Shown here: piece after piece, positions 672 through 63,161 of the stretch
Layout of the letters: the number at the start of each line of letters is the position of its first letter
How positions within the stretch are numbered: the first letter of the stretch is position 1
Origin: Eledone cirrhosa
Lineage: Eukaryota
Direction of reading: 5' to 3'
Assembly: GCA_964016885.1 (NCBI GenBank)
Contig: CAXHJY010001449.1
Coordinates: 1-64,000, forward strand
DNA length: 64,000 nt
The notes under the pieces: generated by a model
The model's database searches: none
Seen by the model: the letters and a program-made list of their open reading frames with translations, nothing else
Told to the model about the DNA's origin: nothing
Position numbers and translations under genes: made by a program

Positions 672-765
672 ACCCCTTGAGAAGATCGGCTATTTAAATA
701 CCAGGATAAATGTTCATTTAGTCCAGAATTAGCCGTCGAAACGGCTTGAGCTCAGCTGTCGGGGT
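672..765 (+). ncRNA. Type I hammerhead ribozyme, U3-A8 core variant
   Basis: Stem I acccc(672-676)/ggggt(761-765); core ttgagaa; stem II gatcggcta...tagccgtc; gaaa; stem III cggc/gctg enclosing palindrome tgagctca; GUC cleavage triplet. Confidence 0.8.
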
Positions 766-858
766 CTTACTGGTTCCTATTACCCACTCTACTACCTCAA
801 GTATTGAGTACTTTGGTGCGTTATGGTCCACCTGGTTCCTTACCACATTTCCTTCGTT

Positions 859-2941
859 ATATATATATATATATATATATATATATATATATATATATAT
901 ATATGTATATATATATGTATATATATGTATATATATATATATATATATATATGTATATATATGTATATATGTATATATATATATGTATATATATGTATAT
1001 ATGTATATATATATATGTATATATATATATATATATATATATATATATATATATATATATGTATATATATATATATATATATATGTATATATATATATAT
1101 ATATGTATTTATATATATATGTATATATATATATATATATATATGTATTTATATATATATATATATATATATATATATATGTATATATATATATATATAT
1201 ATATATGTATATATATATATATATGTATATATATATATATATGTATATATATATATATATATATATACATATATATATATATATACATATATATATATAT
1301 ATATACATATATATATATATATACATATATATATATATATACATATATATATATATATATATATACATATATATATATATACATATATATATATATATAC
1401 ATATATATATATATATATATATATACACATATATATATATATATATATACATATATATATATATATATATATATACATATATATATATATATATATATAC
1501 ATATATATATATATATATATACATATATATATATATATATACATATATATATATATACATATATATATATATATATATATATACATATATATATATATAT
1601 ATATATACATATATATATATATACATATATATATATATATATATACATATATATATATATATATATACATATATATATATATACATATATATACATATAT
1701 ATATATATATATATATATATACATATATATATATATACATATATATATATATACATATATATACATATATATATATATATATATATATACATATATATAT
1801 ATATACATATATATATATATATATATATACATATATATATATATATATACACATATATATATACATATATATATATATATATATATATATATATATACAC
1901 ATATATATATACATATATATATATATATATATATACACATATATATATACATATATATATATATACATATATATATATATATATACATATATATATATAT
2001 ATATACATATATATATATATATATATACATATATATATATATATATATACATATATATATATATATATATACATATACATATATATATATATATACATAT
2101 ATATATATATATATACATATATATATATATATATACATATATATATATATATATACATATATATATATATATACATATATATATATATATATACATATAT
2201 ATATATATATATACATATATATATATATATACACATATATATATATATATACACATATATATATATATATACACATATATATATATATATATACATATAT
2301 ATATATATATACAAATATATATATATATATACATATATATATATATATATACATATATATATATATACATATATATATATATATATACATATATATATAT
2401 ATATACATATATATATATATATATACATATATATATATATATATACATATATATATATATATATATACATATAAATATATATATATACATATATATATAT
2501 ATATATATACATATATATATATATATATACATATATATATATATATATACATATATATATATATATATACATATATATATATATATATACATATATATAT
2601 ATATATATATACATATATATATATATATATACATATATATATATATACATATATATATATATATATATATACATATATATATATATATATATACATATAT
2701 ATATATATATATACATATATATATATATATATATACATATATATATATATATATATATACATATATATATATATATATATACATATATATATATATATAT
2801 ATACATATATATATATATATATATACATATATATATATATATATATACATATATATATATATATATATACATATATATATATATATACATATATACATAT
2901 ATATATACATATATATATATATATATATACATATATATATA
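859..2941. repeat. (TA)n microsatellite with TG then CA interruptions
   Basis: About 2.1 kb of dinucleotide repeat; interruptions switch from g to c near 1250. Confidence 0.97.
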
Positions 2942-2992
2942 ATAATGAAATGACAGGAGGCTGGATTTGTGTAAATCCTTGAAAGGTTTATT

Positions 2993-3050
2993 ATACTATG
3001 ATCATTTCAATGACCGGGTTCCGTATGAATCCGGTGATATCATCAGGTAT
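2993..3050 (-). ncRNA. Type I hammerhead ribozyme
   Basis: Reverse complement of 3986-4043. Confidence 0.82.
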
Positions 3051-3985
3051 TCGAAATATAATACGTGAATGTAATAGGTAAAATCCATGGGGCTGATAAT
3101 CAACAGCGGCATAAAAAAACTACAAAAACAAAGACGGTTGAACTGCTTTACGTTGAGTACTCTCTATATTATTGCATTACGATTGACCATACGGAATAGA
3201 CCAGCTCTATACAGTGGTGAACCTCAAACCTGAATACATATATATATATATATATACATATATATATATATATATACATATATATATATATATATACATA
3301 TATATATATATATACATATATATATATACACATATATATATATACATATATATATATATATATACATATATATATATATATACATATATATATATATATA
3401 CACATATATATATATATACATATATATATATATATACATATATATATATACATATATATATATATATATATATACATACATTCACGGGTCCCTGTGAAAA
3501 TTTTCTCGCGCCACTCCTGGCTTGTCTGTGGTCTGACATTAATATCGACCTTTCTTCCTCTTCCTTTCTATCTTCCTTCTTGTAGCCATCAGCCCTTACT
3601 TTTCTACTTCTCTCTTCCCTTCCTTCTCTCCTCTCCTCCTCCCGCAGCCCTATCTTCCTTCCCCCTCTTGCTTGCCTATATCTGACCAGTAGTAGTTGCC
3701 TTCCTCTTTTAGCTGACAGTAACCCTGACTTCTCTTCTTCTTTCTTCCCCCTTCTTCTCCTTCCTTTCTTTCTTTCTTTTACCTTGTGTCATGGGATCGA
3801 CGTTAACCTATGCTCCCATCCCTTTCTGTTTTCGTTCATCTGACCGGTAGTAGCATACTATAAAATTTAGCCACGTCACTCCAGGGCGACCGGCTGAGGT
3901 TGAAGGAACAGAATAGCGGTCGCCCTAGGTTCTCGATTTTCAGCCCCATGGATTTTACCTATTATATTCACGTATTATATTTCGA

Positions 3986-4043
3986 ATACCTGATGATATC
4001 ACCGGATTCATACGGAACCCGGTCATTGAAATGATCATAGTAT
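3986..4043 (+). ncRNA. Type I hammerhead ribozyme
   Basis: atac CTGATGA ...accgg..ccggt... GAAA tgatca TA gtat; palindromic stem III. Confidence 0.85.
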
Positions 4044-61200: not shown

Positions 61201-61523
61201 CCCACTTGATTGAGGCCACCATTGTAACGGGGTGCGGAAGAGGGGAGAATGTTTTCATTCCAAGGATGAACCTTTTCCCCTCGGCGTCAGATATACCGTT
61301 CGATTTCCGGCGATCCCAATTCCCGGTGAGACCATGTTTTGCCATGTCCATTAACAAGTCACAAGGGCAAACATTGTCGGTGGCGGGCATCCATTTGGGG
61401 GAGCCATATTTCTCCCATGGCCAACTTTATGTTGCCTGTTCCCGCGCAGGGAGCAGGAATGGACTTTTTGCTTACTCTCCTCAAGGGATGACACGCAATA
61501 TCGTCTACAAAGAGGTGCTATAG
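58284..61523 (+). mobile_element. Internally deleted Helitron
   Basis: Possible 5' TC start (tctataaaagg); subterminal tandem repeats 58837-59520; RepHel remnants; no 3' hairpin/CTAG seen. Confidence 0.75.
59528..61523 (+). pseudogene. Helitron RepHel remnant: N-terminal repeats and Zn motif joined to PIF1 helicase, Rep domain missing
   Basis: IGEM..CQFCNA.KW.GE...CCLNGKV.LP; GTGKT, SSGIAATLL.GGRTAHS, WDE, GDFRK.LP, ILAPKN, CNGTR, FAMSINKSQGQT, HGQLYVACSR, VYKEVL*; frameshifts. Confidence 0.92.
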
Positions 61524-61679
61524 ATGTTGGTGCAGGTGTTGGAGCTATGCCGTCTGGAACACTATTTCCTGGTAGGGTATCCCATGGCGGACAGATCTGA
61601 CACCCAGCGGCATCAGGGCCACCATCTTGCAACTTTGGTCTACTAAATTCGCTATTGGAAGATTATTAACCCATCATTG

Positions 61680-62126
61680 ATTGACGTTAACTTATGTTCC
61701 CATCCCTTTCTGTTTTCGTTTATCTGACCGGTAGTAGCACACTGTAAACTTTAGCCATGTCACTCGAGAGCGACCGGCTGAGGTTGAAGGAGCAGAATAG
61801 CGGTCGCCCTCGGGTCCTCGATTTTCAGCCCCATGGATTTTATCTATTACATTCACGTATTATATTTCGAATACCTGATGATATCACCGGATTCATACGG
61901 AACCCGGTCATTGAAATGATCATAGTATAATAAACCTTTCAAGGATTTACACAAATCCAGCCTCCTGTCATTTCATTACAATATTTAACTCCGTAATAGC
62001 ACCACCAACTACAAAAACAAAGACGGTTGAACTGCTTTACGTTGAGTACTCTCTATATTATTGCATTACGATTGACCATACGGAATAGACCAGCTCTATA
62101 CAGTGGTGAACCTCAAACCTGAATAA
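61680..62126 (+). mobile_element. PLE pLTR, same family as 2942-4094
   Basis: Matches 3800-4093 and then 3118-3236. Confidence 0.8.
61871..61928 (+). ncRNA. Type I hammerhead ribozyme
   Basis: Identical by eye to 3986-4043. Confidence 0.85.
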
Positions 62127-62862
62127 ATATATATGTATATATATATATATGCATGTATATATATATATATATGTATATATGTATATATATATATATATGT
62201 ATATATATATATATATATATATATATATTATATATATGTATGTATATATATATATGTATATATATATGTATATATATATGTATATATATATATGTATATA
62301 TATATGCATGTATATATATATGTATATATATATATGCATGTATATATATATGTATATATATATGCATGTATATATATATATGTATATATATGTATATATA
62401 TATGTGTATATATATATGTATATATATATATATGTATATATATATATATATGTATATATATATATATGTATATATATATATATATGTATATATATGTATA
62501 TCGATATATATATGTAGATATATATATATATGTATATATATATATATGTATATATATGTATATATATGTATATATATATATATGTATATATATGTATATA
62601 TATATATATGTATATATATGTATATATATTTATATGTATATATGTGTATGTATATGTATATATGTGTATGTATATATGTGTATGTATATATATATATGTG
62701 TATGTATATATATATGTATATATATTTATATGTATATATATATGTGTATGTATATATATATATGTATATATATATATATATATATGTGTGTATGTATATA
62801 TATGTATATATATATATGTGTGTGTGTATATATATATATATATATATATATATATATATATT
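62126..62862. repeat. (TA)n/TATG microsatellite
   Basis: Direct observation. Confidence 0.95.
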
Positions 62863-62926
62863 AGAAAGTGAGGTTTTTTTTTTTTACAAAATGAAAAATA
62901 ACCGAGGTGTCCTACACGAGTGGAAG

Positions 62927-63161
62927 TATAAAGAAAAAGGGATGAAATCGAAAATGCAACTGAAGTCTTATTTTTTTAAAAAATATATATATTTATTTGG
63001 TTCCTTTACATGTGAGAAAAACCACAGACCCTCCATCTCAACTCACCTTTTGAAAAGCAGAAGAACTGCGAAACCGGTAAAGGAACCAAATAAATATATA
63101 TATTTAAAAAAAAAAAATAAGACTTCAGTTGCATTTTCGATTTCATCCCTTTTTCTTTATA
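62927..63161. repeat. ~84-bp inverted repeat enclosing a hammerhead
   Basis: 62927-63009 versus 63077-63161. Confidence 0.88.
63046..63083 (+). ncRNA. Minimal 38-nt type I hammerhead, U3-A8 variant
   Basis: cctt TTGAAAA gcag aagaa ctgc GAAA ccgg TA aagg. Confidence 0.8.

Follow-up and report, generated by a model that had tools for sequence, protein, structure and literature searches.

The 64-kb window analyzed here is a whole contig (CAXHJY010001449.1), rich in (TA)n, from the 3.0-Gb genome of the animal Eledone cirrhosa. It carries nine motifs shaped like hammerhead ribozymes, belonging to six families (A to F) of putative Penelope-like elements (PLEs), whose copies and arms stop at either a short or a long 3' end beside TA repeats. 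At the contig start, which it runs off, the 3' untranslated region (UTR) and pseudo-long terminal repeat (pLTR) of a family A element, apparently of the Hydra clade (positions 1 to 857, plus strand), stop at the long end (+97 to +103 from the cut) and are 99.8% identical to an intact 3,531-nt tandem unit (L181) with a 716-amino-acid (aa) open reading frame (ORF; P0001). Their hammerhead (672 to 765, plus strand) was placed by descriptor and fold prediction, with a predicted GUC cut after 760. The (TA)n array that follows (858 to 6640) is broken by arms of families B, C, and D. Family B contributes a short-end arm on the minus strand (2943 to 3101; hammerhead 2993 to 3050, predicted AUA cut at 2997), its long-end partner on the plus strand (3118 to 3236, spanning +82 to +201), and another short-end arm on the plus strand (3485 to 4097; hammerhead 3986 to 4043). 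A short-end arm of family C, Hydra-type by its motifs, lies on the minus strand (4498 to 4722; hammerhead 4551 to 4605), begins near the preferred 5' end of that family, and stands head-to-head with a long-end arm of family D on the plus strand (4721 to 4971; broken hammerhead 4848 to 4880).

Family E occupies a 7.5-kb insertion. Its minus-strand 3' pLTR (46932 to 47469) stops at the short end and has a hammerhead with a predicted GUU cut at 46997; upstream lie a 3.3-kb 3' UTR full of TA and CA microsatellites (47470 to 50781), an uninterrupted 830-aa frame assigned to a Hydra-clade PLE (50782 to 53274, minus strand), with reverse transcriptase (RT) and GIY-YIG domains and RWR, DKT, CxCx5C, late CxxC, and CxH motifs, and a 5'-truncated pLTR with leader (53318 to 53692, minus strand) that bears half a hammerhead (53571 to 53692). 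An inverted long-end arm on the plus strand (53728 to 54402) is 99.8% identical to the 3' pLTR and belongs to the same insertion. Stem I of the two E motifs reaches 46987 to 47141 and 54056 to 54210, respectively. Farther along on the plus strand are a 5'-truncated, two-frame family D ORF of apparent Neptune/Nematis type (55693 to 57353; RT, Cx4CxxC linker, GIY-YIG), the short-end D 3' pLTR (57354 to 57767; hammerhead 57557 to 57599), and a long-end B arm (61679 to 62126; hammerhead 61871 to 61928). Family F is present as a long-end arm without a core on the minus strand (62862 to 63009), beginning 3 nt before the cut site, and a short-end arm on the plus strand (63010 to 63161; hammerhead 63046 to 63083). 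Further TA target tracts lie at 45518 to 46934, 54401 to 55250, 57764 to 57863, 62123 to 62861, and 63158 to 63554.

A strict descriptor recovered seven of the nine motifs, with means of 0.08 to 0.17 in shuffled sequence. The relaxed descriptor, adjusted to let in the motifs at 57557 and 63046, recovered all nine with no additional match in the window, and none in 40 block-shuffles or in the reversed window; because it was tuned on the window, the independent genome sample described below is the fair test. Every motif has the type I core (C3/U3-UGAN-G8/A8-A, GAAA, and NUH), with stems I to III in type I order. The B motifs (2993, 3986, and 61871) are three copies of one sequence and the E motifs are two identical copies, leaving six distinct ribozymes; since 46987, 53571, and 54056 are parts of a single insertion, the nine motifs represent eight events. 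The initial annotation had listed nine complete hammerheads from about six families, each some 50 to 200 nt upstream of (TA)n, plus two broken copies. The positions were borne out, as were the broken copies (4848 to 4880 is deleted beyond GAAA, with ~130 nt gone, and 53571 to 53692 is 5'-truncated within stem II) and the spacing (97, 53, 50, 50, 62, 196, 168, 203, and 78 nt from predicted cut to TA tract, in order along the window); the count is refined to six sequences in eight insertions. The Rfam scan proposed as a check disappointed: no model, curated hammerhead models included, matched the window at the gathering threshold, and the 150 of 473 matches listed by E value, which are dominated by TA-repeat microRNA models, include no hammerhead. 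This outcome weakens nothing beyond the claim of agreement with the curated models. That the nine hammerhead-shaped motifs are real and well above chance is confirmed, and self-cutting is predicted.

In 79 evenly spaced 10-kb regions (790 kb), the relaxed descriptor found 46 motifs from 17 families, in 26 of the regions, as opposed to none in each of five shuffles, one in the reversed sequence, and one, zero, and zero for three decoy cores. This density of 58 per Mb (bootstrap 38 to 81) extrapolates from the 790-kb sample to ~1.7 × 10^5 motifs genome-wide (1.1 × 10^5 to 2.4 × 10^5). Exact counts by short-pattern search, which cover families A, C, D, and F, gave 35,898 for the A 3' half, 2,821 for the A 5' half, 12,400 for F, 4,999 for C, and 15,683 for D. 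The axolotl genome is about ten times larger than that of Eledone cirrhosa. A total of 126,247 motifs has been reported for axolotl (PMC7229834). A (TA)5 run started within 250 nt downstream of 36 of 45 sample motifs (21 of 26 with one motif per region), compared with a background of 20%, whereas upstream enrichment was not significant in the sample (13 of 44, P = 0.08); the convergence on (TA)n that had been proposed thus holds on the downstream side only. The accompanying idea of ribozyme-dense landing pads survives in part. Sample motifs are clustered (variance 0.96 versus mean 0.58), but the window itself shows a modest excess (9 motifs versus 3.7 expected, bootstrap P = 0.04), and since an intact ribozyme points into just 29 of the 474 TA tracts sampled, the term fits a minority of tracts. 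As separate observations, locus L249 (G000:C1:245.0 Mb, minus strand) holds at least three retrozyme-like head-to-tail units of 310 nt, each with a hammerhead and ending in TA, and locus L268 (G000:C2:365.0 Mb) holds tandem units of ~430 nt with a hammerhead and an internal TA-rich stretch, from a family with six sample matches.

The proposed PLE origin is supported by PLE ORFs tied to five of the six families, with B as the exception. A single ORF with RT and, at the C terminus, GIY-YIG is whole in A and E and partial in C, D, and F. Family A is a young element, with 100%-identical tandem units of 3,531 nt and an intact 716-aa ORF, to which the 830-aa E frame is 46% identical. Family C is linked to a C-terminal frame of 411 aa bearing Hydra motifs. 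A 555-aa frame in locus L237 ends 1,081 nt upstream of the F cut and rules out F as a non-autonomous family. The D ORF in the window is broken, and no intact full-length D or F copy was seen. Other features of PLE architecture are also present (pLTRs, partial tandems, an inverted 5'-truncated copy, and a tail at one end). Pfam did not recognize the A and E proteins, which are identified from motifs and mutual similarity. RWK-type and DKT motifs occur in A and E; A, C, and E have the CxCx5C linker, late CxxC, and CxH, with no CxxC between GIY and YIG (E has two cysteines there, yet seven residues apart), and D and F have a Cx2-5CxxC linker before GIY-YIG. These motifs suggest that A, C, and E belong to the Hydra clade and D and F to the Neptune/Nematis type, within which we leave Neptune and Nematis undivided. 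The initial annotation spoke of several unrelated lineages and of non-autonomous termini. Two types are indeed represented, but A, C, and E all fall in one of them; the second label fits B, whereas the remaining termini belong, as truncated arms, to elements that bear an ORF. The conserved 2.9-kb unit of family B lacks a long frame (longest sense frame 99 to 196 aa in each of 20 loci), and B is the only family shown to be non-autonomous and non-coding. At loci L415 and L425, B bodies have no pLTR and follow a TA tract directly, starting at the long-end site.

Fold predictions qualify the description of the hammerheads as complete, which holds for topology: the active fold is the predicted lowest-energy monomer fold only for 672 (A), with a U3-A8 core and a stable stem III with a palindromic loop, and costs 1.2 to 10.0 kcal/mol more in the others. 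In families B, C, E, and F, the stem III segment is palindromic, and two copies could pair with each other through it (predicted duplex energies of -7.2, -3.2, -10.0, and -8.3 kcal/mol, respectively); these four would cleave chiefly as dimers through palindromic loop III, whereas A could cleave as a monomer. F combines a U3-A8 core with a 6-nt palindrome, and stem II of E is 116 nt. The D motif at 57557 has an extra base after A9 and a non-palindromic loop III, lacks such a segment, and has a predicted self-duplex energy of +1.4 kcal/mol; across 57557 to 57599 and its relatives, loop III takes the form of a palindrome, tandem G.A, or tandem A.A in the predicted dimer helix. The fourth position of stem II is a C.C mismatch in B, C, and E alike, although these families differ in sequence. 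Non-Watson-Crick first pairs of stem II were set aside as a novelty, being present in published Hydra rows (PMC8557442).

Each family has two fixed 3' ends after the cut (A, +20/+103; B, about +60/+201; C, +56/+152; D, +161/+217; E, +65/+202; F, +80/+141), both joined directly to TA. Among unselected arms, TA lies within 30 nt of the 3' end in 35 of 39 for A, 18 of 19 for D, 11 of 11 for F, 5 of 5 for E, 2 of 2 for B, and 2 of 3 for C. Head-to-head pairs join one short end to one long end in 116 of 120 cases (three are short plus short and one is long plus long), and the B pair (2943 to 3236), the E insertion, and the F pair (62862 to 63161) in the window obey this rule. In read-through copies, the TA alternation continues for at least 3 nt (3 to 4 nt) at nine of 10 testable ends; the TAT/ATA frequency is 0.07. 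These ends were picked by eye, and two further ends were untestable. In 17 of 20 A pairs, both arms match at diagnostic sites (shuffled mean 5.8, maximum 13), which traces the two arms to a single RNA or a single source locus. Two unusual junctions were also observed. The C and D arms at 4498 to 4971, of Hydra type and Neptune/Nematis type, respectively, meet with no TA between them, which could reflect either two RNAs used in one event or the exact nesting of one insertion in another, and at L161/L162 (G000:C1 near 2,954,700) an F ribozyme arm has a tail resembling the E long end, which suggests a template switch between families.

The 5' ends of arms pile up on the A of TCA in families A (-45), B (-163), C (-167), and E (-142) and on the A of CCA in F (-72). 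Among 443 arms, 189 start in a 12-nt window at (T/C)CA, 7 in the 12 nt upstream, and 9 in the 12 nt at the cut, and the last figure rules out the ribozyme cut as the starting point of inverted arms. Unselected arms behave similarly: 19 of 39 A arms start in the pile-up window, with none upstream of -45 and none at the cut, and 12 of 29 F arms start at the pile-up and 2 at the cut. Neither a cap-derived G nor a consistent downstream promoter element was evident when looked for. In A, the most abundant family, the boundary falls within loop II, inside the ribozyme, so that ~92% of copies are half-ribozymes and ~8% of arms carry the whole.

We consider it very probable that type I hammerhead folds, predicted to self-cleave, reside in the pLTRs of six PLE families whose copies end in (TA)n, likely because the element endonuclease cuts TA and the RT starts at two fixed sites downstream of the ribozyme. 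In the model that we favor, a GIY-YIG/RT protein, likely a dimer, would cut both strands of a TA tract; 3 to 4 nt of each DNA end would anneal to the RNA, with the near site serving one end and the far site the other; and both cDNAs would extend toward the RNA 5' end before being joined head-to-head. Most templates would be uncut RNAs initiated at an internal pLTR promoter with an initiator-like TCA or CCA, and linear cleaved RNA would not be the main template. The dimer, two-strand priming, and promoter-start steps are modeled on published work on PLEs (PMC11167929 and PMC2377424). Such a promoter would account for many short ribozyme-bearing stubs and few long copies, and the ribozyme would lie 50 to 200 nt from TA because it sits just upstream of the RT start sites.

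Several points weigh against this model. Ribozyme cleavage, transcript starts, and protein activity are all predictions from sequence, and the clade calls come from motifs and by-eye comparison with Hydra-1_Obim. Five of the six ribozymes are not predicted to adopt the active fold as monomers, and D has no palindromic partner segment. Family D also shows no 5' pile-up; the (T/C)CA positions were chosen after the pile-ups had been seen, and those of B and E comprise only 7 and 6 arms. Because many loci were retrieved with queries that include the ribozyme, arms that begin at the cut are under-represented, and A short arms starting there (20 nt) would be below the alignment threshold. Finally, the PLE PAc initiates without homology to its target (PMC11167929), in contrast to the 3- to 4-nt TA sharing seen here.

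A less probable reading, to which we still give some weight, is that the 5' pile-ups mark RT stalls, splice acceptors, or self-priming hairpins and that inverted arms are products of a single cDNA folding back on itself or of an antisense template (PMC3846280). The A boundary does lie at the predicted loop II hairpin and beside an AG, palindromic junctions are common, and the agreement of A-pair arms fits copying from one molecule. However, the boundary coincides with the A of TCA (frequency 0.018) in four families of five and with that of CCA in the remaining one, and fold-back alone explains neither the short-plus-long pairing nor why the two arms each hold sequence missing from the partner. 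It is improbable that the stubs are independent non-autonomous retrozymes, that is, ribozyme-cut, circularized RNAs for which PLE proteins carry out insertion in trans. Molluscs are known to have retrozymes (PMC7229834), B is non-coding, tandem hammerhead repeats of 310 nt and ~430 nt exist at L249 and L268, and the tandem full-length A arrays are compatible with a circular or read-through template, but five of the six families run upstream into PLE ORFs, the arms are inverted rather than tandem with a hard 5' boundary away from the cut, and most A arms are without half the core. For the long tandem copies themselves, an origin in circular RNA (compare PMC4209133) may still apply.

Equally doubtful is the possibility that the TA tracts were made or lengthened by the elements, through untemplated addition or later slippage, instead of being pre-existing targets. 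The PLE RT is related to telomerase, and TA enrichment is strong downstream of the sample motifs and not significant upstream; on the other hand, the upstream distance is blurred by arm length, inverted insertions have TA at both arm ends, as expected for a split tract, different families are nested within one array (858 to 6640), and published work on Hydra interprets its insertions as a preference for (TA)n (PMC8557442). Chance matches in AT-rich DNA, which the lack of an Rfam match and several stems I of only 4 bp might suggest, are refuted by the empty shuffles, by the finding of an unpaired 3-8 core in only 1 of 47 matched-plus-decoy matches, and by thousands of exact copies per family at a constant position relative to the element end.

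A broader reading joins three propositions: that this is among the most ribozyme-dense animal genomes described (~58 per Mb), that the insertion footprints expose a PLE integration rule (dimer, TA microhomology, two fixed sites, and uncut promoter-initiated RNA), and that the A ribozyme brakes full-length transposition. We advance this combination tentatively, as somewhat more likely to fail than to hold in full. If the family A promoter is internal to the ribozyme, the copy in the 3' pLTR would be the only whole one; more speculatively, cleavage there would strip full-length RNA of its priming sites and restrain the transposition of full-length copies. Such a built-in brake, if true, would explain the ~12-fold excess of half-ribozyme stubs. 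The value of the system lies in its scale and testability, as the thousands of near-identical insertions of young families allow transcription starts, two priming sites, and cut sites to be predicted exactly for each family, and these predictions bear on the function of PLE hammerheads (PMC8557442 and PMC11167929). There is a modest chance that such footprints will settle how PLEs prime and what the ribozyme does. Intact copies of A and E offer starting material for in vitro study of a (TA)n-targeting Hydra-clade enzyme, and short palindromic stubs could be misfiled as miniature inverted-repeat transposable elements in annotations.

The rest of the window holds unrelated repeats. A 17-kb satellite of 53-nt units (~313 copies) occupies 22825 to 39744. 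A disrupted long interspersed nuclear element with apurinic/apyrimidinic endonuclease, RT, and PHD-like finger lies at 42117 to 45132, a Helitron-like fragment with PIF1 helicase and STPR matches at 59471 to 61523, and a non-LTR reverse transcriptase-like fragment, judged by eye, at 63555 to 64000. Dispersed repeats resembling short interspersed nuclear elements and ending in (GAT)n are found at 15449 to 15813, 16268 to 16518, 45268 to 45515, and 57938 to 58053, and a second short repeat family is found at 13098, 40015, and 40615.

The placement of hammerheads in pLTRs together with (TA)n targeting is already described for the Hydra clade, including an Octopus family. Nearly all Hydra families have hammerheads and insert into (TA)n, among them Hydra-1_Obim of Octopus bimaculoides, and inverted copies as well as tails on one side are also described (Craig et al. 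2021, PMC8557442), and an internal pLTR promoter has been reported in a PLE (PMC2377424). The portions consulted of a 2026 repeat annotation of Octopus vulgaris mention PLEs and not ribozymes (PMC13282606). Within the sources that our literature search could reach, which did not include subscription papers, we found no report of the motif count, pairing ratio, microhomology, or split ribozyme, nor of two fixed ends per family or the (T/C)CA pile-up. Families A and E share with the Hydra clade the RW[KR], DKT, CxCx5C, late CxxC, and CxH motifs, and C shares the C-terminal ones; the hammerhead near the 3' end, (TA)n insertion, and a first stem II position that is often mismatched (T.T in many rows) are likewise common to both. 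In contrast, the units are longer here (3.5 kb for A and about 6.6 kb for E versus <3 kb), the U3-A8 core of A is absent from the Hydra rows compared, the E stem II is 116 nt, and short and long tails differ by 56 to 140 nt, compared with the 30 to 40 bp described (PMC8557442).

Published PLE hammerheads have U3-A8 cores, an extra base after A9, a palindromic loop III, and many families per genome (PMC4209133). Like them, the present motifs are of type I, with a short stem I and a longer stem II, mostly in solo or inverted copies; unlike them, they number an estimated ~1.7 × 10^5, versus ~9,000 in Xenopus tropicalis, and stem III of A is stable. Families D and F resemble Neptune/Nematis elements, as described in the introduction of PMC8557442, in the Cx2-5CxxC linker, the two cysteines between GIY and YIG, and a microsatellite bias. 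Non-LTR retrozymes also have type I hammerheads and are PLE-derived (PMC7229834; bioRxiv 10.64898/2026.07.22.740005), but the window motifs are dispersed inverted arms and B is a 2.9-kb non-coding unit; the retrozyme format of 170- to 400-nt non-coding head-to-tail repeats, each with a hammerhead, is found in none of the six window families and in L249 elsewhere. A functional parallel is PAc, an Anolis carolinensis element of the Poseidon clade (Frangieh et al. 2024, PMC11167929), for which in vitro data exist: its predicted dimer cuts and extends both strands, with uncut RNA as the main template. As proposed here, two internal RT start sites define its tail, and its targets too are AT-rich, but the present elements belong to other clades, and each insertion uses each of the two sites once.

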